Assembly: GCA_043806735.1 (NCBI GenBank)
Contig: JAZDGR010000120.1
Span: 1 to 55,953, forward strand
Source of the DNA: a bacterium
Lineage (GTDB): Bacteria; Bacteroidota; Bacteroidia; Bacteroidales; FEN-979
Reading direction: 5' to 3'
DNA: 55,953 bases
In this document: positions 23,646-40,029 of the stretch, piece by piece
How positions within the stretch are numbered: position 1 is the first letter of the stretch
How the letters are laid out: the number at the start of each line of letters is the position of its first letter
Translations under genes and position numbers: made by a program
The notes under the pieces: generated by a model
Databases searched by the model: none
What the model was told of the DNA's origin: nothing
What the model saw: only the letters and a program-made list of their open reading frames with translations

Positions 23646-24809
23646 TTACGCGCCCCACCTTCCCGCTATCCCGGTCCCACAAAACCTGCATTTCGAATCG
23701 CGGATGTTGTTTACAAGGATGGTAAAGCCTTTGCGTTCGAGGAGGGTCTTTTTGCACTTCGGGCAATAGGTGTTTTCGGCGAGGGTTCCGGGGACGTTGC
23801 CGATGTATACGTATTTCAAGCCCGCATGGGTAGCAATGCCGTGAGCCTCCTCCAGAACAGAGAGGGGAGTGTATGGCAAGGTGGTGAGCTTGTACAGCGG
23901 TAAGAACCGGCTGAAATGGAGGGGATTGTCTTCAAAACCGTTATCCACCAGCCAGGTGCACATCTGTTTGATCATGTCAAGTTTATCGGTCCAGTTCGGC
24001 ACGATCAGGTTGGTGATCTCCACCCATACCCCCATCTCTTTAAGGACCTTCAGGGTTGTGAGGATCGGTTCAAGGGTTCCTCCGTTCAGCTTCAGGTAGA
24101 TCTCTTCGCTGAAAGATTTGAGGTTGATGTTGGCTCCGTCGAGGTAGATGGCCAGGTCGCGCAAGGGTTTTTCGTTGATGAAACCGTTGGAAATGAAGAC
24201 ATTTTTAATCCCTTTTGAACGGGCGATCTTAGCCGTATCAAAGGTATATTCGTAAAAGGCGATCGGTTCGGAGTAGGTATAGGCAATCGAGTCGCATCCG
24301 TTGGCCATGGCTTCTATGACGACCTGTTCGGGGAAAAGGTCATAGTTTTGCGTTTGGGTCGGACTCACCTGCGAAATTTCCCAGTTCTGGCAGTTGAGGC
24401 AGGCCAGGTTGCATCCGGCGGTGGCGATGGAGAAACTTTTCGAAGCCGGGTAAAAGTGGAAGAGTGGCTTTTTTTCAATCGGGTCGATATGGACAGAGCA
24501 GGGATTGCCGTAAGCCAGGGTATAAAGCTTTTCCCCTTTGGCTACCTTGGTGCGGCAGAGGCTCTCTTTCCCTTCGGTGAGGATGCACTGGTTGGGACAG
24601 ATCTGGCATTTCACTCCTTTGGGTGTAACCACATAATAGGGCGACTCTTTGCTGTATTTTCCCAGGAGAGTACCGGGAGAATCGGATGGATGATCCATAC
24701 TGAACAACGTTTTGGCAACGGAACGGGAAGAATGCAAACCCACCACCGATCCCCCGATCCCAATCAGGGAATACTTTAAAAAATCCCGTTTGGTGAGCTT
24801 TTTTTTCAT
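23646..24809 (-). CDS. amrS: AmmeMemoRadiSam system radical SAM enzyme with Tat-like signal
   Basis: CQICPNQC, DPIEKKPLFHF, GCNLACLNCQNWEISQ, YTYSEP, YVYIGNV, CPKC...CRFC. N-terminus LTKRDFLK plus a hydrophobic stretch. Confidence 0.92.
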   Translation of the reverse strand: MKKKLTKRDFLKYSLIGIGGSVVGLHSSRSVAKTLFSMDHPSDSPGTLLGKYSKESPYYVVTPKGVKCQICPNQCILTEGKESLCRTKVAKGEKLYTLAYGNPCSVHIDPIEKKPLFHFYPASKSFSIATAGCNLACLNCQNWEISQVSPTQTQNYDLFPEQVVIEAMANGCDSIAYTYSEPIAFYEYTFDTAKIARSKGIKNVFISNGFINEKPLRDLAIYLDGANINLKSFSEEIYLKLNGGTLEPILTTLKVLKEMGVWVEITNLIVPNWTDKLDMIKQMCTWLVDNGFEDNPLHFSRFLPLYKLTTLPYTPLSVLEEAHGIATHAGLKYVYIGNVPGTLAENTYCPKCKKTLLERKGFTILVNNIRDSKCRFCGTGIAGRWGA

Positions 24810-24872
24810 GGAAGAAATAACGTGCGAAGATACGAAAAAAAGTTGGCAGTGGGCGATTTTCAGTTGGCGGTT

Positions 24873-26705
24873 TCAGATGTTTTTTAGCCAATAGTTCAGC
24901 GTAGCCAGGCGCCAAACCAGTGCGCTGTTATTCCCTTTTGATTTGTAGCTGGAAATGACTTCATTAACCACTTTTGAATTGATGAAATCGAGTTGGTTGA
25001 GATTTATATCCAACAGGCATTTCAACGGACCACTCAGCCATTTATCTTCTCCGGGAGTGACAAATCCCTTCTTATCATGCCTGTGATAGATGGCGCTGGG
25101 AAGAGAGCTATTCATCGCCTCACGAAGGATGTACTTGGTAATTCCGTGATTGATCTTATCGTATTTGTCAAGAGTGAAAGTAAATTCAACCAGTCTGTGA
25201 TCCAGAAAGGGAACCCTGGATTCAATAGAGAAAGCCATCGAATTCCGGTCCTCATAATGCAGGAGTGTTGGCAGGCTGGTCGTAAAGATCAGGCCGTGCA
25301 GGAACTCGTCAAACCGTGTTGCAGAGAAGTGAGGGAGAATTTCAAATGGTGGTTTAATGTGCGGGTTCTTTGTGATCTGTTTATGTTTGTGTTTAAATGC
25401 AAGGAGGTACATCTCCTGTTCATCCTTTATGCTGGCAAGGATACTCTTGAACAATTGGTAACCCAGGGCGCTTAGAGGCTGTTTGTGAAGTGTTTGGTGG
25501 CATAATAACGTATGAAAAGCACCACTCCAGTCGAAATCATGGATCATCTCCCCTATTAGTCTGTCGAAGGAATGCATATATCCGGCCAGAAACTCATCAG
25601 CACCCTGTCCATCGAGAAGTACTTTCACACCTTCATGTGAAGCCATTTTCATCAACAGATACTGGGAAACTGGTGATGAGCTTGCAATGGGGACATCTGC
25701 AAAAAATTGGGTTTCTTCAAAGGCATCAAGGATTTCGCATTCTTTAGGCGAGTAATAATGGGGATGAATATTTGGGTATTTTTCAACCACTTTGTAAACC
25801 CAGGGGCGCTCATCTACATCATTATCCCCATTATAATAAATTGTGAAAGTATCGATAGGTTGTTCCGGGAACATAGAACTTATCGCGGAGACCACAGATG
25901 AACTATCTATCCCGCCACTTAGGCAGGCACCTATTTTCACATCACTGCGCATATGGATGCGTACAGATTCGAAAAAGAGTCGCCGGAATTCCAAACGTTT
26001 CTCTTCGAAGGGGATGTCGCATTTTTTACGCAAATCCAGTTCCCAATACTTATCAATTCTAAGGTTTCTTCCATCATACATCAGGTTAGAAGATGCTGGT
26101 AGTCTATTGATTCTGTTGAAGTAAGTTTCGTTATCATAGAACAACCACCCTAGCTGAAGTCCGCGGATAACTTGCTTCTCATTAATATCATTGGTGAAAA
26201 GGGGTGTACTTTTTAATGCTTTGTATTCCGATGCGAAGTAAAATTTGTGATCGTGCATAATGTAATAAAAGGGTTTGATACCGAACCTGTCGCAACTGCA
26301 GAACAGGCTCTTTTTTCGCTGATCCCAGATTGCAAATGCCCACATTCCGACAAAGTGATCGACGCAACGCTCACCCCACTCATGATAAGAAGCAATGACC
26401 ACTTCGGTATCTGAGTTGGTTGAGAACCGATACCCTTTTCGCAGTAATATTTCTCTGATCTCGATGTAGTTGTAAATCTCCCCATTGAGTACGATTACGG
26501 CATTCATGTACTCCAAAGGCTGGTCGGCTTCTCTTGATAGATCAATGATTGCCAGTCTGTTATGACCAAGGATCACGGGAAGGTCGGTGAAAATACCTGA
26601 ATTGTCTTGTCCACGGTGCCGAATACTTTCCAGCATTCGGGAAACAATTGTTCCTGCCTGAGAAACAGAAATTGTGGGATCATAAAAGCCGGAAATACCA
26701 CACAT
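24873..26705 (-). CDS. asnB: Asparagine synthase (glutamine-hydrolysing) family amidotransferase
   Basis: MCGISG (Cys1), HNRLAIID, NGEIYN, LSGGIDSS, DGQGADE, DRNSMAFSIESRVPFLD. Confidence 0.93.
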   Translation of the reverse strand: MCGISGFYDPTISVSQAGTIVSRMLESIRHRGQDNSGIFTDLPVILGHNRLAIIDLSREADQPLEYMNAVIVLNGEIYNYIEIREILLRKGYRFSTNSDTEVVIASYHEWGERCVDHFVGMWAFAIWDQRKKSLFCSCDRFGIKPFYYIMHDHKFYFASEYKALKSTPLFTNDINEKQVIRGLQLGWLFYDNETYFNRINRLPASSNLMYDGRNLRIDKYWELDLRKKCDIPFEEKRLEFRRLFFESVRIHMRSDVKIGACLSGGIDSSSVVSAISSMFPEQPIDTFTIYYNGDNDVDERPWVYKVVEKYPNIHPHYYSPKECEILDAFEETQFFADVPIASSSPVSQYLLMKMASHEGVKVLLDGQGADEFLAGYMHSFDRLIGEMIHDFDWSGAFHTLLCHQTLHKQPLSALGYQLFKSILASIKDEQEMYLLAFKHKHKQITKNPHIKPPFEILPHFSATRFDEFLHGLIFTTSLPTLLHYEDRNSMAFSIESRVPFLDHRLVEFTFTLDKYDKINHGITKYILREAMNSSLPSAIYHRHDKKGFVTPGEDKWLSGPLKCLLDINLNQLDFINSKVVNEVISSYKSKGNNSALVWRLATLNYWLKNI

Positions 26706-26722: not shown

Positions 26723-26780
26723 CAAAACTAACTTCGCAATATTAAAATCTTTTTAACAGGAAATTAAAAACCAATTAGAT
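26723..26780 (-). promoter_or_regulatory. Four 11-bp-spaced direct repeats plus -7 element upstream of asnB
   Basis: Minus strand atctaatt-ggt-ttttaatt-tcc-tgttaaaa-aga-ttttaata, then TAGTTTTG. Confidence 0.5.
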
Positions 26781-28163
26781 ATTCAGCTTTTGAATCAGCG
26801 GAAGTTTGATAAATACGGTTGTTCCCATTCCATATTGGCTATGGATCTCCAAATTTCCATTGTGGAGTTCGATAATCCTGCGGGTAAGGGGAAGACCAAT
26901 ACCGAATCCCTTGATGGCCATAGCTTTTTCGGATCGGAAAAAGGGCTCGAATATATGTTCCATATCACTCAACGAGATTCCCTGGCCATTATCCTGGATT
27001 TTTACAATGATCGAATTGTCGCTGGTAATCAGCCCAATCGTTACAAGACTTTTCTCAGTGGAGTATTTAATGGCGTTATCCAGGATATTCCCTATGGCGA
27101 TGGTAAGCAAATGCTCATTCCCCTCAATTGTCAGTTTCCTCTCCTCCATATCTGCTTCATCCAGTAAGAACCGGATCTTCTTATGTTCTGATTTCAGATT
27201 CATCCGTTCGAGAAGATCCAGTACCAGTTCATCAAGCCGGATTTGCTTTTGGGATTGAATATCATTGGTTCCTGTTGTTTGGGCAAAAAGAAGCAGCTGG
27301 TCTATCAAACGGGATAGGTTACGTGCATCCTCCAGCACGGAAGAGATCACCTCCCGGTATTCAGCAGGAGTACGGTTTCTCATCAGGGCCAGTTCCAATT
27401 CCCCGGTAAGAGTAGTGGTTGGAGTCCTCAATTCATGAGAAGCGTTGGCGACAAAACTTTTCTGTACCTGGAAGGCAGACTCAATACGACTGAGCAAATT
27501 ATTGATCGTCTTGGCAAGTTTTAGCAGATCTCCTTTGCCCTGGGGGAGTGGAACTCTCAAATGCAATCCGCTTCCGCTGATCTTTTCGGCAGTGTTGATA
27601 ATCTTAGCAATCGGTGCAAAGGTTTCTTTGGAGAAATAAAGTCCCAGGAGCACAATAAGTATTATGGAGGCAAGGTAAGCAGTGAAAAGGGTAATCTTTA
27701 AATTATTGAGCAACCGTCTTCCATTTTTATCAAAGGCAGAAACAATAATATCAGAGTATTGTTTACCAATCAACTTCGTGCATCCGACAAACTGCCGAAT
27801 TCCGATCTGCATCTCTACCTCCTGACCCTGATCAATCCGTTTCCGTATTTTGGAATAGTCAAATTGAACCGGATAATACTCATTGATATAAAAGAAGTCC
27901 TTGTCGCTCTTAAAGACGATAATCTCCTCTTCAGGAAGGGTCGTCCAGTATGTATTGCGCAAGGATGGCTGAATGCTATCCAGATCAACGCTACCCGATT
28001 CATTAAGGATCTTGGTTGCAATATTGATTCGTTCCCATAATCGGTCGTAAAATGCATTGTTTCGAATGCTAACTGTAACGTAATAGACATAAATAGAGAA
28101 AACAGCGAGGAGGATAGCAACAATTACCACAAACAGCAAAGTAATCCTGAACCGGAGGCTCAT
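26775..28163 (-). CDS. HAMP-domain sensor histidine kinase
   Basis: Two TMs, ASHELRTP H-box, NILDNAIKY, DNGQG, GFGIGL. Confidence 0.95.
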   Translation of the reverse strand: MSLRFRITLLFVVIVAILLAVFSIYVYYVTVSIRNNAFYDRLWERINIATKILNESGSVDLDSIQPSLRNTYWTTLPEEEIIVFKSDKDFFYINEYYPVQFDYSKIRKRIDQGQEVEMQIGIRQFVGCTKLIGKQYSDIIVSAFDKNGRRLLNNLKITLFTAYLASIILIVLLGLYFSKETFAPIAKIINTAEKISGSGLHLRVPLPQGKGDLLKLAKTINNLLSRIESAFQVQKSFVANASHELRTPTTTLTGELELALMRNRTPAEYREVISSVLEDARNLSRLIDQLLLFAQTTGTNDIQSQKQIRLDELVLDLLERMNLKSEHKKIRFLLDEADMEERKLTIEGNEHLLTIAIGNILDNAIKYSTEKSLVTIGLITSDNSIIVKIQDNGQGISLSDMEHIFEPFFRSEKAMAIKGFGIGLPLTRRIIELHNGNLEIHSQYGMGTTVFIKLPLIQKLNI

Positions 28164-28164
28164 T

Positions 28165-28842
28165 TCAATCGGGCGTTTTGATGATAAATCCCATTCCTAC
28201 TACTGTATGGATTAACTTCTGGTCAAAGTTTTTATCGATCTTTTTTCGCAGGAGGTTTATATATACATCAACCACGTTGGTTCCGTGGTCAAAGGAAAAA
28301 TCCCAAACCTTTTCCTCAATATCCACGCGTGAGACCACTCTGCCCCGATTCCTTAGCAAGTATTCAAGGAGTTTGAATTCCCTGGCAGTCAGGTTGATTT
28401 GTTTGCCATCCCGATGCACGGTTTTCGCCAATGTATTCATTTCAATGCCTTCGAATTTGAGCATCGTGGCATGCGTCGTTTCATCTTTGCGCCGTAACAA
28501 GGCTTTTACCCGTGCCAACAACTCTTTAAACTCAAAGGGTTTGATGAGGTAATCGTCAGCACCCGCTTCCAGTCCGGTCACTTTATCATCAGTGCTTCCC
28601 AAGGCGGTCAGCATCAGAATGGCCACTTTATAATCCCGTTGACGAATGTTTCTACAAAGCTCAATACCGCTTTGCTTTGGCAATAAAATATCAAGTATGA
28701 TCAGGTCATAATCTCCCGTGCGGGCTAGCAGATCACCTTCGAGACCGTCCTTTGCAATATCAACATAAAACAAATGTTCGGAAAGGCCTCTGCTAATGAA
28801 TGAGGCAACTTTCTGATCATCTTCAACAAGTAAAATCTTCAT
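28165..28842 (-). CDS. OmpR-family response regulator (CusR/ArlR-like)
   Basis: MKILLVEDD, LDILLP, GADDYLIKPF, TNVVDVYI, HTVVGMG. Confidence 0.95.
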   Translation of the reverse strand: MKILLVEDDQKVASFISRGLSEHLFYVDIAKDGLEGDLLARTGDYDLIILDILLPKQSGIELCRNIRQRDYKVAILMLTALGSTDDKVTGLEAGADDYLIKPFEFKELLARVKALLRRKDETTHATMLKFEGIEMNTLAKTVHRDGKQINLTAREFKLLEYLLRNRGRVVSRVDIEEKVWDFSFDHGTNVVDVYINLLRKKIDKNFDQKLIHTVVGMGFIIKTPD

Positions 28843-28895
28843 CTCAATTTGTTTTGCGCACACAAAGATATGCATCAGGAAGTTTCATTACGAGT

Positions 28896-28953
28896 TTCTA
28901 ATTCGTTTTTAATTTTATATTAAGTACTTCCTAATTTGGGGAGGATACTTTTG
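28896..28953 (+). promoter_or_regulatory. Four 11-bp-spaced direct repeats (TYTAATT-like) plus -7 element TACTTTTG
   Basis: ttctaatt (28896), ttttaatt (28907), tattaagt (28918), tcctaatt (28929); TACTTTTG at 28946-28953. Confidence 0.6.
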
Positions 28954-28991
28954 TCGAGTCATCAGTTAGAACAAACTTAAAAATCATAACA

Positions 28992-29867
28992 ATGAAAACG
29001 ACAATTGAAAAAACAAGAATGGTTGCAATTGGCGGAGGGATCCTTTTTGTGATCGCGCTAATCTGTTTGGTAACTCTCTATTCTCAAAACAAAAAACTGA
29101 ATAAATCAGTTCAATTGGAACAAAGCCAGAACACCACTTTGTTGACGCAAAAGCATGCGCTCCAGAATGAAATTGATCACTTGACCTCTGCGATTGCCGA
29201 TATGAATGGAAGAAATGTGGAGCTTGACAACTTATTAACAGAAATTAAAGTAAAACTGAATGGGGCTCAGGTTGAGTTAAACCGTTTAACTAAAGATAGA
29301 ATGGATATCAACGCAATGCAAAAGAAACTCCTGGAAGTTCAGGTATTGAAAGATGAACTGGAAGCACAGGTTATGGCATTGAACGAAAAGATGGAAAATC
29401 TGACCCATGAGAACCTTGCTTTGACAAACACGATCATTAATCTGGAAAACGAGAATCGTGAAATGGCAGTCAATCTGGAGGTGGCACAAGCAATCCTAAC
29501 TAATAATTTTCTTATCGAAGCTGTGAAGGGGAATAATGAGAAACCTACTATATCAGCAAAACGAGCCCGCGAAATTAAGGTTGACTTTGATATTCTGGCG
29601 ACAAATCAGTCGCAGATCCATTTTAAAATTATAAAACCCAATACTGACGTAATCGACTCAAAGACAGATAAAAACTTCACATTAAGAGGTTCCGCCCCAA
29701 CTATTGGATTGCTAGCAAATATCTCCCCCGCATCCAATATTCCCATCAAGGCGAATCGGATCAGTATGGTTTACAGGCCAACAATGAAACTTCGATCTGG
29801 AATCTATACCGTCGAAGTCTATAATAATGATATATATCTTGGCGCAAGCCAGATTAAACTTAGATAG
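28992..29867 (+). CDS. Membrane-anchored coiled-coil protein
   Basis: N-terminal TM, long heptad coil, C-terminal beta domain (GIYTVEVY...LG). Confidence 0.8.
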   Translation: MKTTIEKTRMVAIGGGILFVIALICLVTLYSQNKKLNKSVQLEQSQNTTLLTQKHALQNEIDHLTSAIADMNGRNVELDNLLTEIKVKLNGAQVELNRLTKDRMDINAMQKKLLEVQVLKDELEAQVMALNEKMENLTHENLALTNTIINLENENREMAVNLEVAQAILTNNFLIEAVKGNNEKPTISAKRAREIKVDFDILATNQSQIHFKIIKPNTDVIDSKTDKNFTLRGSAPTIGLLANISPASNIPIKANRISMVYRPTMKLRSGIYTVEVYNNDIYLGASQIKLR

Positions 29868-29892
29868 TGGTGAGTGGCTGAGTTTGTTTTGG

Positions 29893-29918
29893 ATCCCGGC
29901 TTCGGCCGGGATTTTTTT
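29893..29918 (+). terminator. Rho-independent terminator
   Basis: ATCCCGGC-TTCG-GCCGGGAT followed by a T tract. Confidence 0.9.
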
Positions 29919-30000
29919 ACGAGATATTAAGAGGCATTATTATCATAGTAAAATCTGATCTCTGTCGCTTTCTTGAAGGCGGATAATGCCTGAATGTATT

Positions 30001-30594
30001 TCATATATTCAAGTTGAATCCCTCAAGTACAAAACTTACAGCTTTCGCACAAATAAAAATATAAAGGATTCTTGCAATTACAGAGACCCCGATTTTTCCT
30101 ATGACCCGTTCAACAAAAGGTGCAAGTTTAAGAACGGGAAATATTGCAAGGTAGACCAACAACACGGTCAAAACCGTAAGAATTCTTCCGTTGCTCTGAA
30201 TCAACAGAATGGTGGTGAGGATTGTACCAGGGCCTGCCAGGTACGGAAACCCCATAGGAAACACTGCGATGGAACTGTTCGCAGCGTCATGGATTTTATT
30301 TTGCGGGTTTCCCAGAATGACCCCCCGGGCTGCAACAATGAAAACAAGGATACCCCCGGCAATTTTAAATGCCGATGTACTTATTGTAAAGACATTCCGC
30401 AGCATAATATCCCCAAACAGGGCGAATGCCAGTACTATTCCGCCGCCGGTAGCTACTGCAAGGAGATTGGTCCGGGCCCTTGCCGGTTTGTCCATCTCGC
30501 TGGTCAGGTCTGCAAAAACCGGAAGATTTCCAACGGCATTTACCATAGCGAATAACACCAGGAAATTATGAAGCAGTTGCGAGATCGTTTCCAT
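30001..30594 (-). CDS. MarC family integral membrane protein
   Basis: LFAMVNAVGNLPVF, AFKIAGG, AVFPMGFPYLAGPGTI. Confidence 0.9.
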   Translation of the reverse strand: METISQLLHNFLVLFAMVNAVGNLPVFADLTSEMDKPARARTNLLAVATGGGIVLAFALFGDIMLRNVFTISTSAFKIAGGILVFIVAARGVILGNPQNKIHDAANSSIAVFPMGFPYLAGPGTILTTILLIQSNGRILTVLTVLLVYLAIFPVLKLAPFVERVIGKIGVSVIARILYIFICAKAVSFVLEGFNLNI

Positions 30595-30595
30595 C

Positions 30596-31942
30596 TTAAA
30601 TTGATAAAGAACCCCCTTGAGTCCGCCCCATCCAGTCAAGGTTATTCAGTTCCCCGAAATACTCCCTGAATATCCGGTAATAGAATAACTCCTCCTTAGT
30701 GTTCAGAGTCCAACCATTCTTAAGCTTCCTTTCGGCACTGAAATCCATATCGGTGATCTTTTTGGAGGCATAATCCGAGATCAGTCTCTCCACCCCGGCT
30801 CCTTCCCAGAATTTGGCCTTAGGCCGCTTTAAAACGTCCTCGGGCAACAGTTCCTCCATAGCTTTACGAAGGATCCATTTTTCAATGCCATCCTTCAATT
30901 TAAGGCTGGCCGGGATCCTGAGGGCAAATTCAAAAAGCTGTGGATCAGCAAATACAACATGGGCTGTTAAACCGTGGGCCGCTGCACACCGGTCGACCCG
31001 TTGTAAAGCGGTATTGTGCAGCCGGCCGGTGATGCCAATCAGTTCCCGGTCAAGGTCCGACTCCGGAAGGGATTTAAGATACTGGTATCCGGCAAAAAGT
31101 TCATCACCCCCCTCCCCGGAAAAGACCTCTTCGACATACCCTGAAGCTTGTTTTGCGACCAGGTAATTGATGACGCTTGAACGGACCAGCAGGGCATCGA
31201 ACGATTCGAGGTGATAAATGACCAAGGGAAGCACCCGTAACATTTCTTCAAGGGTAATGATCACATCGTGGTGTTCGGAGCCAAGGTACCTGGCCATTAC
31301 CCGGGCATATTCCAGGTCGGGGGCATCGCGCAGCCCACCTGTAAATGTATGGAGTGTTCTTACCCATGGCCTGGCAAGGGCAGCAATGGCGCTTGAATCC
31401 AAACCTCCTGAAAGCCATGACCCCATGATATCTGAGGTTATTCTACGGGTAACTGTCAGAGTTAAAAGATTGAGCAGTTCCATTGCAATGGTCTCAGAAT
31501 CTAGTTGTATTTGAGGCTTCGTTTCGTGGCTGAAATATTTTTTCCTTGTTGTTTCGGTTATTATATACCCGGACGGGATTTCAAAAATATCTGCTGAAAC
31601 CTGCAGTAACGCTTTGACCTCAGAGGCGAAACAGAAATCCCCCTCACCAGTTGAGGTTAAATACATCGGGGCAACGCCCAGCTCATCGCGATATATCTGC
31701 CATATACCGTTGGGTCGGGCCACCTCCAACTTGTGACCAAATCCCGGGCCATCCCTGAAAATCCCCTTTCGGAGTTTTTCTTTAACTCCTTCATCCTCAT
31801 GATGTGACCATACCATCCCGATGGTTGCCCCATCCTTTTCTAGGATAATCTTCCCATAATTTCCCCGATGGGAGATGGTCTCAATCATCCTGGAAACCAG
31901 TTCCTGTTCCCCTTCTTTTAAAATACCAGCAATTCCCGCCAT
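30596..31942 (-). CDS. Asparagine-synthetase-like ATP-dependent ligase lacking the Ntn cysteine
   Basis: MAGIAG (Ala replaces Cys1), reduced Ntn domain (RDELGVAPMY, FASEVKAL), intact LSGGLDSS, SGEGGDELFAGY and RPK. Confidence 0.85.
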   Translation of the reverse strand: MAGIAGILKEGEQELVSRMIETISHRGNYGKIILEKDGATIGMVWSHHEDEGVKEKLRKGIFRDGPGFGHKLEVARPNGIWQIYRDELGVAPMYLTSTGEGDFCFASEVKALLQVSADIFEIPSGYIITETTRKKYFSHETKPQIQLDSETIAMELLNLLTLTVTRRITSDIMGSWLSGGLDSSAIAALARPWVRTLHTFTGGLRDAPDLEYARVMARYLGSEHHDVIITLEEMLRVLPLVIYHLESFDALLVRSSVINYLVAKQASGYVEEVFSGEGGDELFAGYQYLKSLPESDLDRELIGITGRLHNTALQRVDRCAAAHGLTAHVVFADPQLFEFALRIPASLKLKDGIEKWILRKAMEELLPEDVLKRPKAKFWEGAGVERLISDYASKKITDMDFSAERKLKNGWTLNTKEELFYYRIFREYFGELNNLDWMGRTQGGSLSI

Positions 31943-31960
31943 ATTAGAAATTTTTTTGTT

Positions 31961-33601
31961 TTATTGTCGTTTAATTCGTTCGAAAATGCCTATCAACCTT
32001 GATTCTTCCTCTAAAGGATCGCCTGTTGACGGATCGATCGCGTACCAGGCACCTTTCATCAGCCCGGTGAGGATATCGCCTCTGAGGAAAGGATTTCCTT
32101 TAAAATGTGGACTATCAAGTATCCCCTCGCGAATGGCCCTGGCAATCACATAAGGGTCAGCCATCGGATCATCGCAGTCGGTCCCTATAAATTTAAGACC
32201 TTCAAGTAGCGTTCTTGCCTCGTAAACCAGTTGGCCCTTACGTGTCATAATACTTAAATCGGATAACATATCAGGAAGCCCCTCTATACAGTTCTGTATA
32301 ACACCATGTACAATCTGGCAGCTTTCTATTAGCTCTCGGGGTAGAGCAATGTGGTCTCCTTCGCTATAACCTACTACATGTAAAATGTGAGGCTTCAGTG
32401 CCAGACTGATCAGTGCAGAAGCGGCCAGTTGGCCTTTTGCAACAGAGGGTATGGGAGAAAAGTGGGCAATCCCGGCCCGCACTTCACGGTAAACGGTGAA
32501 CGATTCATCTTCGAGTTCGCGTATCAGCTCCAGTTTGGCTGCCATTTTAGCAATATCCATTGCCGGCTGGGTTCCCGGTGGCGTATTAAACATTAACTGG
32601 GCGATGTAATTTCTTACCCCAATCTTCTTGGCATTATAGGCAGCCAGGAAGGCCATGGCCACCGCCAGTGAATCATGCGCATCGCGCAGGCTCCACTGAT
32701 GCGATTCATTGACCTCTACCGGGATATGGTGGCGTGCGTACCACCGCATCACACGTTGGTTTTCGGCAATAGCCTCCTCCAAGGTACGGTTTGACCGTCC
32801 GTCCAAAACACTGTACCAACAGAGTGGGATTGCCGCCCAGGCATTATGAATCGTCTTCACACTCATCTCGGCCCACTTTAAAAGGTCGCGGGTACCAGCA
32901 TAACAGCGCATAAGGGGAAAATTGCCGCATCGGGAGGCCTTGTAGAGAGCCACCATATCCTCGGTGCTGCGTACCGGTACGCCTCCCGCACCTGTCTGTG
33001 CGGGGTCCATCTCCTTTGGTCTAAAGAAATGTTCCTGGGCATTCTGATCCGGGCCGATGGAAATAACGTCTAATACTTCTGCCTTCGAGATTTGCCTGAT
33101 CCCTTCAATAGTTTCCAGAAGGGAAGGTCTCCCGAAATGATGCCTCAACAAAGGATAGGGATACTTCTGATTGATCCTGCCGATCAGATCGGTAACCGGA
33201 TTTTCTTTCTCAGATTTATTCCCAGCCCCACGCAGGAATGCCTTAATTGCTCCTATAGGTTCGGATCCGTCGAAGGCCGCTTCAAAAAGTCCTGATTCTC
33301 TTGCCTTGGCTGCCACGGGTGGCGGTCCGCCGAATACCATCCGGCAACCGGAGAAGCTTTCCTTGGCTAACCCTTGTTTTAATTCTATAAACAGGCTTTC
33401 TGCTACTTCGGGTGTCAACCGGTAGCTAATAGCAAGAATATCTGGTTTTTCCTTATGGATTGCTTCCAGAATACATTGAAACGGAACAGCCGGCCCCAGT
33501 GAAATCGTCCGGTATCCTTCCGCTTCAGCTAATTTTAAAAAGTGATGGAGCCCGCCGATATGAACGCAGGTACCGATAGCCGCTCCCAAGATCTTTTTCA
33601 T
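31961..33601 (-). CDS. Cobalamin-binding domain protein fused to a putative catalytic barrel (mutase-like)
   Basis: N-terminal B12 domain (CVHIGG...SLG...ISY...VFGG) followed by a ~400-aa domain. Confidence 0.8.
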   Translation of the reverse strand: MKKILGAAIGTCVHIGGLHHFLKLAEAEGYRTISLGPAVPFQCILEAIHKEKPDILAISYRLTPEVAESLFIELKQGLAKESFSGCRMVFGGPPPVAAKARESGLFEAAFDGSEPIGAIKAFLRGAGNKSEKENPVTDLIGRINQKYPYPLLRHHFGRPSLLETIEGIRQISKAEVLDVISIGPDQNAQEHFFRPKEMDPAQTGAGGVPVRSTEDMVALYKASRCGNFPLMRCYAGTRDLLKWAEMSVKTIHNAWAAIPLCWYSVLDGRSNRTLEEAIAENQRVMRWYARHHIPVEVNESHQWSLRDAHDSLAVAMAFLAAYNAKKIGVRNYIAQLMFNTPPGTQPAMDIAKMAAKLELIRELEDESFTVYREVRAGIAHFSPIPSVAKGQLAASALISLALKPHILHVVGYSEGDHIALPRELIESCQIVHGVIQNCIEGLPDMLSDLSIMTRKGQLVYEARTLLEGLKFIGTDCDDPMADPYVIARAIREGILDSPHFKGNPFLRGDILTGLMKGAWYAIDPSTGDPLEEESRLIGIFERIKRQ

Positions 33602-33625
33602 CTCTCTGACACGTTAAAAAGGTTC

Positions 33626-34735
33626 TTACTGTTTCTCTCCGATAGCCAGCAGCCGTAATTCCCGGAGATTCATACCCGATATGCCAAGGCGTTCGACGGT
33701 TCTTCCGGCACTCATGTAATCCCGGTGATTTAAAACGGAGGCCAGGTGGATCAGGGAATCAATCGAAGGGGTGGGAACACCGAACATCCGTCCTAACGAG
33801 GAAATCGGGACCAGGCTATAGGGCACATCCTCTTCCAGATATCTCATCTTCAGGGTTTTTGGGGCTAGGATTCCCCGGTATCCGGGGTTCTTACGCATCG
33901 CTTCAAAGAGGGTCTCCCCTGTGGTGCTATAAGCCATATAAAACCACTGTCGGGCACTGATAGCCCGTATCCCAAGGGCTTCGGCTACCGAGATTCGCTC
34001 CTGGTCGACCCTTTCGAGCACCCTAGCTACCGATTCAGTAGCCCCCTCATGATAAAATTTGAAATCGGTATCGTCTTCAATCCAGCCTGCATTGAGAATA
34101 CAGATGGCCGGGTGAAATACGCTTCCGATATTGTCGAAACTCGTTTTGAAAATGTTGTCGCCAGGAACAAACTGGGGATAAAATTGTCGAAGCTTTGAGA
34201 TGACACGCGGAATGAGATGTGCACGCACAGAGGCGACAGGAATGGAATGTTTGATCCCAAAGATGTGGGCCTGGCTTGGCCCGATTGTCCGGGAAGCATA
34301 AATAAAGGTCTGGGCTTCAGAAACTATCACATCGGCTTTCACATTTTTCTCAATCAGCACCTGTTTGAATTCCAACGCCCCCATTGTCCGGCCCGGATGG
34401 AGCACGATGATTTGCCCATTATTCAGAAATGGCGCCATCTGTTCTGCAATCCACCGGTGCGCTATTGCAGGTACCACCACCATAATCATCTCTGCCCCGC
34501 TGATTGCCTCCTCTATGGAATTTGTTGCAACCGCGATCCGGCCAAAACCGGTGATTTCTCCCTGGACTTCAATACCACCGGTGGATTTCACCCCCCATAA
34601 CCGTTCTTCGCCGCGGTTAAACAGATGGACCGTATAGCCCATGATGGCCAGATGGCCTGCCATGGCAAGTCCCCCATGACCGGCACCTATAACAGCGACC
34701 GGTTGAAGGGGGCTAATTGTTTGATTTGTTTCCAT
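33626..34735 (-). CDS. NAD/NADP opine (octopine/nopaline) dehydrogenase family protein
   Basis: VAVIGAGHGG Rossmann fold, NIGSVFHP, RYLEEDVPY. Confidence 0.9.
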   Translation of the reverse strand: METNQTISPLQPVAVIGAGHGGLAMAGHLAIMGYTVHLFNRGEERLWGVKSTGGIEVQGEITGFGRIAVATNSIEEAISGAEMIMVVVPAIAHRWIAEQMAPFLNNGQIIVLHPGRTMGALEFKQVLIEKNVKADVIVSEAQTFIYASRTIGPSQAHIFGIKHSIPVASVRAHLIPRVISKLRQFYPQFVPGDNIFKTSFDNIGSVFHPAICILNAGWIEDDTDFKFYHEGATESVARVLERVDQERISVAEALGIRAISARQWFYMAYSTTGETLFEAMRKNPGYRGILAPKTLKMRYLEEDVPYSLVPISSLGRMFGVPTPSIDSLIHLASVLNHRDYMSAGRTVERLGISGMNLRELRLLAIGEKQ

Positions 34736-34931
34736 AATGAAAGAGTTTTGAATTCCTGTGAATAGATAACCGCTCGCTTACGGGACAATACCACAGATGC
34801 ATGCACGAGTATCGAGGGGTATCACGTTTCAGGACGCGGAATGATGCTGTGAAGTGGCTTGTGCTGCACAATTCTGTTGTGAAAAATGTAGAATTGTTTT
34901 GTGATCAGGCAGAAAACCTGTTTCCCCCTAC

Positions 34932-35396
34932 TCAAGTGAAAGGGGGTGGACGAATTTTTTCTGTGATACCCGTCGTTAAGGATAGGGCTAGAAATGGAGC
35001 AGCGTAAATGATAGTGAACGGATCAAGGGGGTCCATAAGTAGCAGGCTGGATAAGGCAGGATATTTAGATCCGGGTTGCTGGGCGGCAATACCGCGGGGC
35101 CTCGTCTTATTAAAGTTTTTCGGGTTGAGAGGTTGTGAAGAGTTTTTTTTAATTAGTGATTGCGAAAGTGTACAAAGGTTATTATTACCAGCCCATCTGC
35201 CCGTCTCGGCCCAGGTCCGGTAAAAAAGGTCGTCTCCCTGATACGTTGGTTGGATCCAGGTAATAATATCTTTAGGAAGGTTGCCACACCTGAATCCGGT
35301 CATTCCAGAATAACAAGTGAACGAAATGACGATCAGGGAATACAACAGAAAGTCCCGGTTCAGGAATAGTCCGTGATATCTTGTGTTCGTCTTCAT
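34932..35396 (-). CDS. Hypothetical protein with N-terminal hydrophobic segment and C-terminal RPPP
   Basis: 154-aa ORF co-oriented between nhaD and the opine operon, ending IRPPPFT. Confidence 0.5.
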   Translation of the reverse strand: MKTNTRYHGLFLNRDFLLYSLIVISFTCYSGMTGFRCGNLPKDIITWIQPTYQGDDLFYRTWAETGRWAGNNNLCTLSQSLIKKNSSQPLNPKNFNKTRPRGIAAQQPGSKYPALSSLLLMDPLDPFTIIYAAPFLALSLTTGITEKIRPPPFT

Positions 35397-35479
35397 GTTT
35401 TGCGGATCGAAGTCCTGGATCCTTTAATATCCTTCAAATATAAGAAAAAATTTACCTATTTCCAAATAAGAGTGCTCAA

Positions 35480-36769
35480 TCAGAACATCAGAATATACAC
35501 AAACGCTCCTGCTAAATATCCCATAAGCGCAAGCAGAGAGACTCGTTTTAAAAACCAGAAGAAGGTGATCCGCTCCATACCCATAGCAGCCACCCCGGCT
35601 GCCGAACCGATGATCAGGATACTTCCGCCGGTGCCGGCTGCGTAAGCGAGAAATTCCCAAAAGAAGTGATCGGTAGGGTAAAGGGTCAGCGGATACATTC
35701 CCTGCACAGCCGCCACTACCGGAACGTTATCTACAATAGCCGAAAGCATGCCGATCACCAGAATGGTAGCGCTCTGGTTCGGAAGGTTCATTATCAGGTA
35801 TTCGGCCCAGGTGATGAGTATGCCTGAGGATTGGAGGGCCGAAATACAGAGGAGTATCCCCAGGAAAAAGAGGATGGTGGAGGTGTCGATTTTTCGCAGG
35901 GCCTGAACCACGGAGAAGGGCCCTTTTTCTTTCTCGTGTTTGCTCCGGTGGACGATTTCCGTTAACCCCCACATAAGCCCCAGTGCCAGCAACATGGCCA
36001 TAAAGGGAGGCAGGTGTGTCACGGCCTTGAAGAATGGTACAAACAATAGGGCAAACATGCCGGCAAAGAAGAGTAAGTTTTTTTCAAAAGGGGGAATGTC
36101 GTTGTGCTTCGCATCGGCGCTTTTTGGCGGATCGACAATGCCTGGCCTGATCATAAATGTGGCGGCGGTCAGTGGAACCAGCATACAAACCAGGCTAGGC
36201 AGGATCAGTTTGAGGATGATGTTGAGGGCTGTGATCTGGTTCCCGATCCAGAGCATGGTGGTAGAAACGTCGCCCATAGGCGACCAGGCTCCGCCTGCAT
36301 TGGCGGCTATGATGATGGTTCCGGCAAAAAACCAACGGTCGCGTTCGTCGCGGATCAGTTTCCGGGTCAGGGAAATCATCACAATGGTGGTGGTGAGGTT
36401 ATCCAACACAGCGGAGAGGAAGAAGGTAACGAGGCTGATGATCCAAAGTAACGAGCGTTTCTTACGGGTCCTTATCTTTTCCGTGATGATGTCAAACCCG
36501 TCGTGCGAATCGATCAGTTCAACGATCGTCATAGCACCCATGAGGAAAAAAAGAATTCCGGAAATATCGGCCATATGTGTTCCGATGGCCTCGGTCACGA
36601 CCTCTTTTGTGGGACTGAACAGCATGAAAATGGTCCAGGACAATGCGCCGGCGATCAGGGCGCTGGCTGCCTTGTTTACACGGATTTTATGCTCCGTGAC
36701 GATGGCCAGATATCCCGCGATAAAAATGACTGTTATGAGAATTTCGCTCATCAACGAATTAGTTCTCAA
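35480..36769 (-). CDS. nhaD: Na+/H+ antiporter NhaD
   Basis: LSAVLDNLTTTIV, AANAGGAWSPMGDVST, SAIVDNVP, GTGGSILIIGSAAG. Confidence 0.93.
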   Translation of the reverse strand: MRTNSLMSEILITVIFIAGYLAIVTEHKIRVNKAASALIAGALSWTIFMLFSPTKEVVTEAIGTHMADISGILFFLMGAMTIVELIDSHDGFDIITEKIRTRKKRSLLWIISLVTFFLSAVLDNLTTTIVMISLTRKLIRDERDRWFFAGTIIIAANAGGAWSPMGDVSTTMLWIGNQITALNIILKLILPSLVCMLVPLTAATFMIRPGIVDPPKSADAKHNDIPPFEKNLLFFAGMFALLFVPFFKAVTHLPPFMAMLLALGLMWGLTEIVHRSKHEKEKGPFSVVQALRKIDTSTILFFLGILLCISALQSSGILITWAEYLIMNLPNQSATILVIGMLSAIVDNVPVVAAVQGMYPLTLYPTDHFFWEFLAYAAGTGGSILIIGSAAGVAAMGMERITFFWFLKRVSLLALMGYLAGAFVYILMF

Positions 36770-38105
36770 TAATTAGTTTAATCTTATCTCCCGCTATCCG
36801 TTCGTGTAACCAGGTTTCCAGACGCTGTATTTCATCTTTCCTGACTTTCTTTCTGAATTTCAGGTAGACCAGGTTTACCGTATCGGGCGATTCGGCTTTT
36901 GCTGTGCTCAACAGAGCCCTGGTAAAGGAAGCCTCCTCCACTTGGGGAAAAAGGGCTCTGATCTCATTGAGAATGGTACCGGATAAATATCCGGACTGGT
37001 ATTTTGTCAATTCCTTTTCAAGCAGATCTATCTTCTCATCTTTTGACAACATGGCCTCCTGGTTCTTCTTGTACAGTTCTTCAATGATCTGAGATTTCAT
37101 GCTGGTGATATCGGAAGCGGTTAACTCTTTCAACCCCTGTTTTATCTTCAGATTCGTATTTCCGAGATGATAATCCTCAAGTTTTGTCCTGGTATTTTCC
37201 AGCAGGTCGGGGCTGACTCCTTTGCCTATATAAACCACTTGAATGGACCTGGTACCGGCATCAATATTTTTCTCAATAATCGTATTCCCTTCAAACATCA
37301 TTTCCTTCGCAATAAACCGGCCGGCATTGGTCTCAAAAATAGTCCTGCGGATCATGTAATAAGCGATGATGACACTCGGCACGAAGGTAAAAATGACAAT
37401 CAGCCAGATCCATAGCCTCATCCTGCGGCCTGTGCGCTGATCAGGATACTGGTGGATTGGGAAACGAAGAAACCTGACGATAAGAAAAGTACCTAGGCAA
37501 ATAAATACGGAGTTAATGAAGAAAAGGTAGATGGCCCCCAGGAAAAAAAAGATATTTCCCATTGCCAGTCCATAACCTGCTGTGCATAGCGGCGGCATCA
37601 GTGCGGTAGCAATAGCCACACCCGGAATAACGGTCCCTTTTTCCTTGCTTGAGGTGGCAACGATTCCTGCCAGACCTCCAAATAGTGCAATAAACACGTC
37701 GTAGACCGACGGTGTGGTTCTTGCAAGCAATTCAGAATGTGCTTCGTTTAAAGGGGTCAGGAAAAAATAAATTGTGGAGGAGATCAGACTTATTACGATA
37801 GCGACCAGATAATTATAGGCAGATATCCGGATTAACTTGAAATCATTGATGCCGGCCCCCAGGCCGATTCCCATAATCGGCCCCATCAAGGGCGAAATCA
37901 ACATGGCCCCGATGATGACTGCGGTGGAGTTAATGTTGAGACCTATCGAAGCAATAAAGATGGCAAACATCAATACCCAGAGATTGGTTCCCCGGAAAAA
38001 GATATTCCTTTTAATCGCATCAATAACCTCTCCGTATTCCTCCTTATTCTTTTCGAGACTAAATCGATCCTTGAAAAAATTATATGTAAGTACTTTTAAA
38101 TTCAT
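36759..38105 (-). CDS. DUF389 / TIGR00341 family membrane protein
   Basis: NSTAVIIGAMLISPLMGPI, PGVAIATALMPPLC. Confidence 0.92.
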   Translation of the reverse strand: MNLKVLTYNFFKDRFSLEKNKEEYGEVIDAIKRNIFFRGTNLWVLMFAIFIASIGLNINSTAVIIGAMLISPLMGPIMGIGLGAGINDFKLIRISAYNYLVAIVISLISSTIYFFLTPLNEAHSELLARTTPSVYDVFIALFGGLAGIVATSSKEKGTVIPGVAIATALMPPLCTAGYGLAMGNIFFFLGAIYLFFINSVFICLGTFLIVRFLRFPIHQYPDQRTGRRMRLWIWLIVIFTFVPSVIIAYYMIRRTIFETNAGRFIAKEMMFEGNTIIEKNIDAGTRSIQVVYIGKGVSPDLLENTRTKLEDYHLGNTNLKIKQGLKELTASDITSMKSQIIEELYKKNQEAMLSKDEKIDLLEKELTKYQSGYLSGTILNEIRALFPQVEEASFTRALLSTAKAESPDTVNLVYLKFRKKVRKDEIQRLETWLHERIAGDKIKLIIEN

Positions 38106-38220
38106 ATGTTCCAGACTATATTGTAACCCACAAATTTATCAATTATCGTAGTTGATTCGAAAAAAATTCCTATCTTGTCTTGTGTGAACATCCGAATATG
38201 TATATCTAATCATAAAAAAC

Positions 38221-40029
38221 ATGATTAAAAACATTATTCAGTGCAAGAAAAAGGAGCTTGTACAAGTGCTCTGGGAAATAGCTCCGGAAATTAAACAATT
38301 ATTAAAGGAATCTGCTAATCTGATGGCGGCACGAGACCGTTTTTTCCTTTATCTGAACGACCTTGAACGAAGTTATTACAATATTTTTTCTGACCTGCCC
38401 CTTCGGGATCTGCATATCATCAATCGAAACAACGCCAAGGAATGTATCCGTGTCCTGAAGAATGTGATCCGGACCGAAAACGAACAGCTTACCAGTTTCT
38501 CGGCCATTCAAATAGTATATAATCTTGCCCAGGATCATCATCATATAACTGACGAGATATCTGAAGGATTTCTTGCAGAATTTATCTATCTCTTCCTGGG
38601 CATTACCGGGCAGTCCATTACTGATAAAGGTATAGAGGTCCTTGATGCAACCGGCAGGGAAGCTGCTATTATACGGTCAGAAAAACTGGATTTTTATTCC
38701 TCACAATTACAGCGCCATTTCGGGCGGTTTAACAAGGGGACCGATCCTGCTATCGAAAAAAAGCGGAGGATTATGAAAAATAAGATCCTGGAGTATTTCC
38801 GGTCAACAGAATCTGACTGGCAGGATTATCAATGGCAACTGAGACATATCATCAAAGATTATAAGACCCTGAATGATTTAATCAGGTTGGAAGAGGATGA
38901 AAAAGAGGGTATTCTGGCAGCGAAAGCAAGTCGAATTCCATTTCAGATCACCCCATATTACCTTGCGCTGTTTAACAGGAATGGTAGAGCCCGGGAAGAT
39001 ACTCTCTTGCGGTCAATGGTCATTCCGAGTCGCAAATATTGTGATAACATTGTGAGGAACAGGGAAGAAGGTCTCGATATGGATTTCATGGGGGAGGGTT
39101 CGACCAGTCCGGTTGATGGGATTACCAGACGATATCCGCAGATCGTGATCCTGAAACCTTTTGACTCCTGTCCCCAGATCTGTGTTTATTGCCAACGTAA
39201 CTGGGAAATCAAGGATTTGGATGCAGCTACCATCACCACTCCGGTCATCCGTAAGGCCATAACCTGGATTGCAGAACATCCGACAATCAGTGAAGTTTTA
39301 ATCACCGGTGGAGATCCACTGACCCTTTCCGATACCCGGATTGGCTCCATCATCTCCAGAATCGCTGCCATACCCCATATTGAACGGATCCGGATCGGCA
39401 CCCGAATGCTGGTTACACTGCCCCAACGGTTCACAGATAACCTGCTTACTATTTTCGCAAAGTATCATCAGTTCGGCAAGAGGGAAATCGCACTCATCAC
39501 TCATTTCGAGAGCCCCATGGAAATTACTTCCGAGACCCTCCGTATCATTGAAAAGATCAGAAGAAAAGGCATCAGTATTTATAATCAGCAGGTGTTCACC
39601 TATTACAACAGCAAACGATACGAGACCTGTTTCTTGCGGAAAACGCTTAAGCTTTCCGGTATCGAACCTTATTATACTTTTAATACCAAAGGCAAGGAGG
39701 AAACCCTCGATTTCAGGGTGCCCATAGCGCGTATTGAGCAGGAAAGAAAGGAGGAAGCAAGACTGTTGCCAGGGATCACCCGCACCGATGAACCGGTTTT
39801 CAATGTCCCCAAACTGGGCAAATCCCATCTGCGTGCCTGGCAGGATCATGAACCGGTTATGATCCTGGGGAACGGTCAGCGTGTTTACCGCTTCTATCCC
39901 TGGGAATCGAAAATAGCAACCGTGGATGATTACCTGTATAGGGATGTTTCAATTTATGATTATCTCAGCCGGTTGCACAACGACGGTGAAGATATTGCAG
40001 AATACCGCAGTATCTGGTATTATTTCTAA
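38221..40029 (+). CDS. KamA-family radical SAM (amino-acid 2,3-aminomutase-like) with ~190-aa N-terminal extension
   Basis: W.DYQWQLRH, FQITPYY, TRRYP, CPQICVYCQR, TGGDPL, RIGTR, and a probable PLP lysine in PKLGKS. Confidence 0.88.
   Translation: MIKNIIQCKKKELVQVLWEIAPEIKQLLKESANLMAARDRFFLYLNDLERSYYNIFSDLPLRDLHIINRNNAKECIRVLKNVIRTENEQLTSFSAIQIVYNLAQDHHHITDEISEGFLAEFIYLFLGITGQSITDKGIEVLDATGREAAIIRSEKLDFYSSQLQRHFGRFNKGTDPAIEKKRRIMKNKILEYFRSTESDWQDYQWQLRHIIKDYKTLNDLIRLEEDEKEGILAAKASRIPFQITPYYLALFNRNGRAREDTLLRSMVIPSRKYCDNIVRNREEGLDMDFMGEGSTSPVDGITRRYPQIVILKPFDSCPQICVYCQRNWEIKDLDAATITTPVIRKAITWIAEHPTISEVLITGGDPLTLSDTRIGSIISRIAAIPHIERIRIGTRMLVTLPQRFTDNLLTIFAKYHQFGKREIALITHFESPMEITSETLRIIEKIRRKGISIYNQQVFTYYNSKRYETCFLRKTLKLSGIEPYYTFNTKGKEETLDFRVPIARIEQERKEEARLLPGITRTDEPVFNVPKLGKSHLRAWQDHEPVMILGNGQRVYRFYPWESKIATVDDYLYRDVSIYDYLSRLHNDGEDIAEYRSIWYYF

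Follow-up and report, generated by a model that had tools for sequence, protein, structure and literature searches.

The closest described relatives of the genes reported here come from a comparative study published in 2009 (Zhang, Rodionov, Gelfand and Gladyshev, BMC Genomics 10:78, PMC2667541), whose available text predicts, in 11 genomes, a new family of proteins that depend on B12. The hosts given there are Clostridia and Lactobacillales (Firmicutes), Chloroflexi and Thermotogae, with no Bacteroidota among them. The members are described as carrying a distant N-terminal B12-binding domain, always adjoining a gene for a PF02317 octopine/nopaline dehydrogenase, and having an asparagine synthase or a D-Ala-D-Ala-ligase-type enzyme nearby. 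We analysed a contig from a Bacteroidales genome of the FEN-979 lineage (GenBank assembly GCA_043806735.1, contig JAZDGR010000120.1, 55,953 nucleotides, hereafter "the window") that carries a four-gene operon of this kind. Consecutive and co-oriented on its minus strand lie genes for an opine dehydrogenase resembling N-(1-D-carboxylethyl)-L-norvaline dehydrogenase (CENDH; 33626–34735, 369 aa; Pfam Octopine_DH, 4.8e-48), a putative adenosylcobalamin mutase that resembles a fusion of the glutamate mutase subunits GlmS and GlmE (31961–33601, 546 aa; hhalign to GlmE), an amide synthetase of the AsnB type whose Cys-less N-terminal domain is degenerate (30596–31942, 448 aa; PF00733, 4e-61) and a MarC/NAAT-family membrane transporter (30001–30594, 197 aa from its ATG; PF01914, 7.5e-36). 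The coordinates bear out the co-orientation and the gaps of 24, 18 and 1 nt described in the first-pass annotation, and direct reading confirmed the last junction, between the ligase stop and the MarC start; a TTG start would extend the MarC open reading frame (ORF) to 30639. We give about an even chance to the reading that these genes form a horizontally spread and tightly conserved biosynthetic unit, in which opine dehydrogenase, GlmS-GlmE-like cobalamin enzyme, AsnB-type synthetase and MarC would together lead to a putative compatible solute or stress metabolite.

We infer that the family of the window's B12 protein is the one predicted at that time (PMC2667541), both from the 2009 description and because its Atlas neighbours are mostly Bacillota and Chloroflexota. 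The first-pass annotation knew of no described pathway with this gene set. Within the literature that we searched this holds for the pathway, and outside subscription journals we found no characterisation of the gene set after the 2009 prediction; it does not hold for the gene association itself, which, as the available text of PMC2667541 makes clear, is already published. What is new here is the homology to GlmE, an invariant Cys in place of Asp in the B12-binding motif, the ancestry of the Cys-less ligase, an osmoadaptation context, and the spread to Bacteroidota, Ignavibacteria and related groups.

To describe the conservation of the operon we surveyed one genome per species, which gave 291 relatives of the B12 protein, kept the best 80 loci and placed their neighbours by tblastn. 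The dehydrogenase gene lay immediately 5' of the B12 gene in 77 of the 80 loci, and the three misses (L012, L019 and L077) begin less than 375 nt from the B12 gene. The ligase gene followed immediately 3' in 64, three of the 16 misses falling at a contig edge, and MarC came after the ligase in 15. The same order recurred in a second phylum, that of genome G342, which carries canonical glutamate mutase operons: 15 of the 401 genomes sampled had a family member, and in eight loci with 52–58% identical orthologues the dehydrogenase was upstream in all eight, the ligase and MarC were each present in seven, and a DUF389 gene in four. The arrangement of dehydrogenase, B12 protein and ligase is far beyond chance, and the conservation of the trio, which the earlier reading had put forward as a check, is that of a co-conserved unit. 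Titles of the 80 loci include Bacteroidales, Rikenellaceae, Lentimicrobiaceae, Prolixibacteraceae, Ignavibacteria, Melioribacter and the isolate Rosettibacter primus (L020), as well as Deltaproteobacteria, Aminicenantes, Alphaproteobacteria and 'Clostridia' metagenome-assembled genomes (MAGs); judged from these titles, the hosts are anaerobes. BLAST of the 91 loci examined detected no separate ATP-grasp ligase (the "Ddl" of PMC2667541). Close to home the operon is patchy. The B12 gene was found in none of the ten same-genus genomes searched, 40 relatives had no orthologue, and only one of 300 other genomes of the phylum sample carried it. The operon is accessory within the window's lineage.

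The B12 protein belongs to a large family. A word-index search scored 8000 candidates and returned 7557 of them as homologues at E ≤ 0.001. Apart from the window's own protein, the top 119 were 64–77% identical to it and bore the record labels Bacteroidales, Lentimicrobiaceae, Melioribacter, Alphaproteobacteria and Deltaproteobacteria. Between phyla the identity within the family is 60–75%. An exhaustive search of 50%-identity representatives gave 739 clusters at E ≤ 0.001. One cluster (P0136) includes a 41% identical member from a Promethearchaeota (Asgard) MAG under the name 'methionine synthase'; the family extends into archaea, and misnaming of its members is common.

Pfam recognised only residues 3–104 of the window's B12 protein (33290–33595, minus strand), a B12-binding Rossmann domain (PF02310, 7.2e-08, 32.7 bits, cut-off 32.1), leaving the rest of the chain without any Pfam domain. 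A profile of the family likewise found B12 domains in the PDB (4jgi, 1.1e-07; the B12-dependent mutase 2yxb, 6.1e-06). The first-pass annotation had described a B12 domain fused to an unassigned domain. The fusion stands, and the second part can now be tentatively assigned. When our family alignment (A1) was compared by hhalign with four GlmE or fused GlmS-GlmE sequences, it matched them collinearly across 500 columns that stretch from the B12 domain as far as the C-terminal cap (Prob 97.6%, E 4e-12), and for this reason we read the protein as fused and GlmS-GlmE-like. Two of these PF06368 templates are canonical GlmE proteins, flanked by MutL and methylaspartase genes (L086 and L087), and two are natural GlmS-GlmE fusions with DxHxxG (L084 and L088). 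Against a single GlmE template the probability was only 24.7%. PF06368 itself had no direct match to the window's B12 protein nor anywhere in the window's genome, and PDB searches by phmmer and by profile with the window's protein, A1 and the relative P0139 retrieved B12-binding domains only, never GlmE. Among the 39 members of A1, 35 matched PF02310 and five PF06368 (best 1e-06). P0139 (863 aa, with the motif C-V-H) combines a B12-binding domain, Met_asp_mut_E (PF06368, residues 153–517) and an ATP-grasp ligase domain, and the distant relatives P0154, P0157 and P0159 carry a fused domain of the MutL type (PF13941), known from glutamate mutase operons. Judged by these alignments, glutamate mutase appears to have a single-chain relative in the B12 protein, and its C-terminal ~400 residues appear to be a distant homologue of GlmE, with a GlmE-like barrel and cap at residues ~140–533 (32003–33184, minus strand) by collinear hhalign alignment. 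The earlier idea of an adenosylcobalamin mutase is therefore reasonable, given that the homology to GlmE extends over these 400 residues.

Two features set this protein apart from known mutases. The first lies in the cobalamin-binding motif, where residues 10–17 read G-T-C-V-H-I-G-G in the translation, so that the CxHxxG noted at first pass is indeed there, with C-V-H-I-G-G replacing DxHxxG at residues 12–17 (33551–33568, minus strand). Cys12, His14 and Gly17 were each present in 79 of 79 dehydrogenase-linked family members, and the Bacillota-type orthologues had C-V-H in all seven cases with a captured N-terminus. D-x-H stood there instead in two paralogues without a dehydrogenase neighbour, where it reads D-A-H, and in one distant dehydrogenase-linked variant. 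The Cys of CxHxxG is, as far as these sequences tell, a clade-defining feature. The second concerns the active site. We relied on eight residues of Clostridium cochlearium GlmE that we take to be Arg66, Arg100, Arg149, Glu171, Tyr177, Tyr181, Lys326 and Glu330. Each of the eight falls on a conserved residue of canonical GlmE sequences once a constant offset of one is allowed for, which supports the numbering. Arg66, Arg100 and Arg149 (the three-arginine claw) and Glu171 presumably bind the substrate. They align with His155, Gln189, Tyr234 and Ala/Gly256 of the B12 protein, the first three of which are invariant, in a local register that is uncertain. Glu414 aligns with GlmE Glu330 and was found in 79 of 79 dehydrogenase-linked sequences. 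According to the available text of PMC4413051, GlmE Glu330 interacts with the adenosyl group through a ribose contact and stabilises the radical pair.

Across the 79 sequences 122 of 546 positions are invariant, among them His154, Trp262 and Asp267 as well as further arginines (142, 153, 269, 306, 375, 454 and 535) that could serve as carboxylate binders. Cys428 (79/79) and Cys233 (77/79) are also conserved in the dehydrogenase-linked sequences, and no obvious metal-cluster motif is visible. Adenosylcobalamin radical chemistry is plausible for such a protein, and free glutamate is an unlikely substrate. The window's genome encodes a PduO-type adenosyltransferase and a methylmalonyl-CoA mutase, which suggests that adenosylcobalamin is in use there; CobA was not found in this genome, which is 93.6% complete.

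Two other contexts of GlmE-like proteins came to light. In G318, from the family of the window's genome, a 617-aa paralogue of the DxHxxG type (L082:5645-7498, 35% identical) has an ATP-grasp ligase on one side and an MBOAT acyltransferase with two GT2 glycosyltransferases on the other, with no dehydrogenase; it is a second context of the GlmE-like superfamily, looking like cell-surface chemistry. The single-chain fusions L084 and L088 (G342 and G365; 646 aa, canonical DxHxxG), one of which adjoins a gene that by eye is FkbH-like (HAD-type), probably supply methylaspartate for secondary metabolism.

The identity of the dehydrogenase proposed at first pass is well founded. It matched the PF02317 Octopine_DH helical domain at 163.4 bits (4.8e-48, cut-off 30), its residues 13–112 matched several NAD-binding Pfam families with AVIGAGHGG, a Rossmann GxGxxG sequence, at residues 14–22, and phmmer aligned residues 13–361 without gaps to PDB 1bg6 (1.6e-72). 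The positions aligned with His202, Arg292 and Asp297 of 1bg6, which we take to be its catalytic set, are all identical. The protein is a genuine member of the opine-dehydrogenase family. This family is rare, PF02317 turning up in three of the 301 phylum-sample genomes and in none of 14 control genomes, and the dehydrogenase is the sole PF02317 gene in the window's genome. Genome G119 of the phylum sample encodes a PF02317 dehydrogenase (111.6 bits) and has no B12-protein orthologue at E ≤ 1e-30; the dehydrogenase family is therefore not always paired.

Opine dehydrogenases with a mutase beside them could also work in the degradative direction. Mutase and dehydrogenase would then break down an amino acid or an imported opine, with MarC as importer, much as ornithine or lysine aminomutase acts with a dehydrogenase. 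Such pairs are typical of amino-acid fermentations, the hosts are anaerobic by their locus titles, and the closest solved dehydrogenase, 1bg6, is an enzyme induced by growth on an opine-type compound. However, an ATP-consuming amide synthetase is present in 64 of the 80 loci and an ATP-grasp domain is fused to the mutase in P0139, and ligases are unexpected in catabolism; lyase, thiolase and CoA-transferase genes, moreover, are not recurrent in the 80 loci. We regard a catabolic or fermentative role as unlikely. A somewhat less probable proposal is that the operon serves as a redox sink and handles nitrogen: pyruvate and an amino acid would be condensed to reoxidise NAD(P)H, as in marine invertebrates, ammonia would be fixed as an amide and MarC would export the product. 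Opine formation does use up NAD(P)H, a Cys-less ligase would take free ammonia, and the accessible text of PMC3751872 reports a Thermoanaerobacter X514 dehydrogenase up-regulated in an ethanol-adapted strain. But this proposal leaves the B12 rearrangement without a reason and does not explain the ion-channel and osmolyte-synthase genes described below.

As the first-pass annotation had it, the ligase starts with MAGIAG (residue 2 is Ala), unlike the window's other asnB gene (24873–26705), which starts with MCGISG, and it keeps the synthetase motif SGGLDSS. This PP-loop occupies residues 178–184 (31391–31411, minus strand), where, in an alignment of 66 sequences, S178, G180, D182 and S183 are conserved in all, G179 in 65, L181 in 62 and S184 in 61. 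The window's ligase, like the other Cys-less ones, has also lost a segment of ~48 aa that bears the glutaminase motifs RLSIID..GxQP and NGEIYN. Residue 2 of the 65 operon-linked ligases was A, S, G, T, I, P or K in 52 and Cys in 13, and these 13 Cys-bearing orthologues, in the same operon position, also keep HRGPD, RLSIID..GxQP and NGEIYN; eight belong to loci whose titles read Ignavibacteria, Ignavibacteriaceae, Chlorobi, Kapaibacterium or Bacteroidota, and five to the second phylum. A FastTree tree with the window's other AsnB as its root unites the Cys-less ligases in one clade; the Cys-less state is a derived trait of that clade.

These data bear on the idea that had led the earlier reading, namely opine formation, B12-dependent rearrangement and then an ATP-dependent intramolecular ring closure, in which an enzyme like beta-lactam synthetase (beta-LS) or CarA would form a beta-lactam or another lactam. 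The window's ligase lacks the N-terminal Cys, as those two enzymes do, and matches both (beta-LS 4.5e-18, CarA 1.5e-15); a 1,2-shift of an N-(1-carboxyethyl) to an N-(2-carboxyethyl) amino acid would, by inference only, give something resembling the beta-LS substrate. Nevertheless, it is far closer to E. coli AsnB (1ct9, 3.1e-45) and human ASNS (1.5e-41). Its Glu277, a Glu in 65 of the 66 sequences, aligns with AsnB Glu348 and with Tyr348 of beta-LS (1jgt); the role of this Tyr, which replaces the AsnB Glu, is assumed here. At this operon position 13 orthologues are glutamine amidotransferases that bear the Cys, one of them above the AsnB equivalog cut-off, and no other antibiotic-type genes are recurrent in the 80 loci. 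Comparison with AsnB, beta-LS and CarA, together with the tree, thus places the ligase in the AsnB lineage, and lactam closure becomes highly improbable. We dropped the beta-lactam idea because of the AsnB-type Glu, the closeness to AsnB and the glutaminase-bearing orthologues.

The same evidence, the Cys-bearing orthologues, Glu277 and the greater closeness to AsnB than to beta-LS or CarA, suggests that the conserved job of the ligase gene would be the amidation of a carboxylate with ammonia. This ammonia would presumably be glutamine-derived in some lineages and free in the window's lineage, where the glutaminase half is degenerate. The ligase might simply make asparagine, since one Cys-bearing orthologue (L106) scores as a true AsnB, at 530.9 bits against the equivalog cut-off of 499. 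The dehydrogenase and B12 protein would in that case act on asparagine or aspartate, in a variant amino-acid metabolism that depends on B12. The window's ligase is indeed most like E. coli AsnB, although it scored below cut-off both for NF006949 AsnB (315.8 bits against 499) and for TIGR03104 (119.7 against 570.1). On the other hand, P0139 has an ATP-grasp domain, fused to a mutase of the CVH type, in the ligase's place, and we know of no ATP-grasp enzyme that makes asparagine; the window, besides, encodes a separate full-length AsnB. An ordinary asparagine synthetase at the centre of the operon seems to us improbable.

Clues to the purpose of the product came from the neighbouring genes, for which the ORFs of the 80 loci were clustered and representatives annotated. 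MarC is a clear member of its family (PF01914, 7.5e-36, 123.9 bits against 23.9; TIGR00427, 123.1 against 99.2). Upstream of the operon in the window, also on the minus strand, are an NhaD-type Na+/H+ antiporter (35480–36769; NF038006, 153.5 bits, cut-off 80), beside the operon in four of the 80 loci, and a DUF389/TIGR00341-like membrane protein (36759–38105; PF04087, 1.7e-45), beside it in five, while 9–13 kb away there is a CLC channel, together with a tandem universal stress protein. Recurring neighbours elsewhere include MscS (14 loci of 80), a K-Cl-cotransporter-like permease (12), an OtsA/OtsB fusion (6), a glucosyl-3-phosphoglycerate-synthase-like (GpgS-like) enzyme fused to a phosphatase (5), a CLC channel with CBS domains (5), NhaD itself (4) and a P-type cation ATPase (2). 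At least one of these listed ion or osmolyte genes accompanies the operon in 27 of the 80 loci, in at least six different arrangements. In L047, for instance, MscS lies 38 nt 3' of the B12 gene; in the deltaproteobacterial L026, OtsA/B is directly upstream on the same strand; Ignavibacteria-type loci have MarC and then CLC; and in L019, L028, L049 and L054 the GpgS-like gene lies within the operon. In the independently sampled genome G105 the dehydrogenase and B12 genes are followed by the ligase gene, an ORF of 96 aa, one MscS-like gene and two that are OtsA/B-like, all of them co-directional. A 403-aa membrane protein found 3' of the operon in some loci had no family match and was left out of the antiporter counts.

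The occurrence of ion and osmolyte genes in several independent arrangements is our reason for reading the product as a compatible solute, and of the alternatives offered at first pass (osmolyte, metallophore or catabolic route) the osmolyte fits the genomic context best. A metallophore of the staphylopine or pseudopaline type did not hold up. Opine dehydrogenases complete both of those pathways and an exporter-like gene is present here, but a nicotianamine-synthase-like gene, a TonB-dependent receptor and an ABC importer were not recurrent in the 80 loci, and the neighbours are ion-homeostasis genes; we consider it very unlikely. Metallophore and antibiotic readings alike were rejected because the expected partner genes were not recurrent, and the product is probably a small stress-protective molecule and not an antibiotic.

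Several observations weigh against a biosynthetic unit for a compatible solute built around a glutamate-mutase-like enzyme. The PF02310 score of the B12 protein barely clears the cut-off (32.7 vs 32.1), its Cys stands where DxHxxG has Asp, so that the canonical base-off/His-on motif is incomplete, and the three-arginine claw and Glu171 of GlmE are lost at aligned positions whose local alignment is uncertain. This last loss means that the reaction may differ from a shift of the glutamate mutase type. No MutL-type reactivase was found in the window's genome at its 93.6% completeness, and the L106 ligase exceeds the AsnB cut-off. None of the listed ion or osmolyte neighbours was present in 53 of the 80 loci, and their counts come with no background rate for random genes and with many positive loci from related Bacteroidales. 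Because of the missing background rate and this kinship, we regard the link between the operon and osmotic or ionic stress as a well-supported inference, not a demonstration.

In the biosynthetic unit that we favour, there would be four steps, given here in a tentative order. The dehydrogenase would use NAD(P)H to condense an amino acid with a 2-oxo acid, giving an N-(carboxyalkyl) amino acid. The B12 enzyme, with adenosylcobalamin, would catalyse a skeletal rearrangement of some substrate that is not free glutamate; our working model is that an N-substituted glutamate-like moiety becomes a 3-methylaspartate-like one. The ligase would adenylate the aspartate-like carboxylate and amidate it with ammonia (free NH3 in the window), and MarC would move the resulting compatible solute or stress metabolite across the membrane. 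A specific, self-consistent version, to which we grant a slim chance at most, starts from L-glutamate and pyruvate and would proceed through N-(1-carboxyethyl)glutamate and, by a shift of the glutamate mutase type, its 3-methylaspartate analogue, which amidation would turn into an N-(1-carboxyethyl)-3-methylasparagine-like solute. It would account at once for the changes at the mutase's amino- and carboxylate-binding positions, for the AsnB-like ligase and for the ATP-grasp fusion in P0139.

More tentatively, the B12 protein may represent a new class of adenosylcobalamin isomerase, an 'opine mutase' acting on the N-(carboxyalkyl) amino acid made by its partner, with Cys-His for Asp-His under the cobalt; the operon would then produce a family of amide-capped opine compatible solutes not described before, in anaerobes of at least four phylum-level groups and possibly in Asgard archaea. 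To our knowledge only about a dozen adenosylcobalamin isomerase reactions are known, and every textbook B12 mutase that we know of has Asp at the site of the invariant Cys. Solving this operon would probably bring to light a B12 reaction and a microbial metabolite that are both new, and it could explain the tolerance of uncultured Bacteroidales, Ignavibacteria and Bacillota from digesters, sediments and springs to salt or related stress, and a cultured carrier exists in R. primus.

An Rfam scan of 28000–40000 at E ≤ 1 found no riboswitch or other RNA, and a promoter and terminator consensus scan gave nothing decisive. A 154-aa ORF between NhaD and the dehydrogenase (34932–35396, minus strand) has no Pfam or NCBIfam match and a homologue in one of the 80 loci. 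A histidine kinase (26775–28163) and an OmpR-type response regulator (28165–28875), both on the minus strand and assigned by Pfam, lie beside the operon, have homologues flanking it in 11 and 12 of the 80 loci, respectively, and are possible regulators of it. The Cys-bearing 610-aa AsnB has a radical SAM protein (387 aa) directly downstream and forms with it a separate pair (23646–26705, minus strand), no homologues of which were found near the operon in the 80 loci. The genes for a radical SAM protein of 602 aa and for an aminotransferase of class I/II lie on the plus strand at 38221–41340 and diverge from the DUF389 gene; neither is conserved beside the operon elsewhere. Finally, a TIR-domain protein (459 aa, 41733–43112) lies in a region of low G+C content (42000–46000, 0.33–0.40 against ~0.47 elsewhere), a stretch that may be a defence or foreign island.

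Compared with known systems, the B12 protein is closest to glutamate mutase (GlmS/MutS plus GlmE/MutE, or the fused L084 and L088), with which it shares the domain order, the 500-column homology, the Glu330 equivalent and, in some of its relatives, fusions to MutL-type domains. It differs by having Cys for Asp in DxHxxG and His, Gln, Tyr and Ala or Gly at Arg66, Arg100, Arg149 and Glu171, and in its operon the partners MutL and methylaspartase (compare L086) give way to a dehydrogenase and a ligase. The dehydrogenase resembles the Arthrobacter CENDH (1bg6) in its collinearity over residues 13–361, ~45% identity by eye and the kept His202, Arg292 and Asp297 positions, whereas, unlike that enzyme, it is obligately partnered with a B12 protein. 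The ligase shares with asparagine synthetase B the PP-loop, the Glu348 equivalent and the overall synthetase domain, but lacks the Cys nucleophile and ~48 residues of the glutaminase core and scores below the NF006949 cut-off. With beta-LS (1jgt) and CarA (1q15) it has in common its derivation from AsnB and the lack of a catalytic Cys, yet the similarity is much weaker, Glu277 stands in place of the Tyr348 of beta-LS and the window gene has glutamine-dependent orthologues. We take AsnO of the NAGGN osmolyte pathway, an AsnB-type enzyme that presumably neutralises a carboxylate of a compatible solute, as a precedent for the amidation step; the window's ligase differs from that AsnO-Ngg system in falling below the TIGR03104 cut-off, and no Ngg-type gene was among the recurring neighbours of the 80 loci. 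The 2009 prediction, in its available text (PMC2667541), left the rest of the B12 protein without an assigned fold and the family without a function, whereas the operon described here can be read as a GlmE-like enzyme set between an opine dehydrogenase and an AsnB-type amide synthetase.

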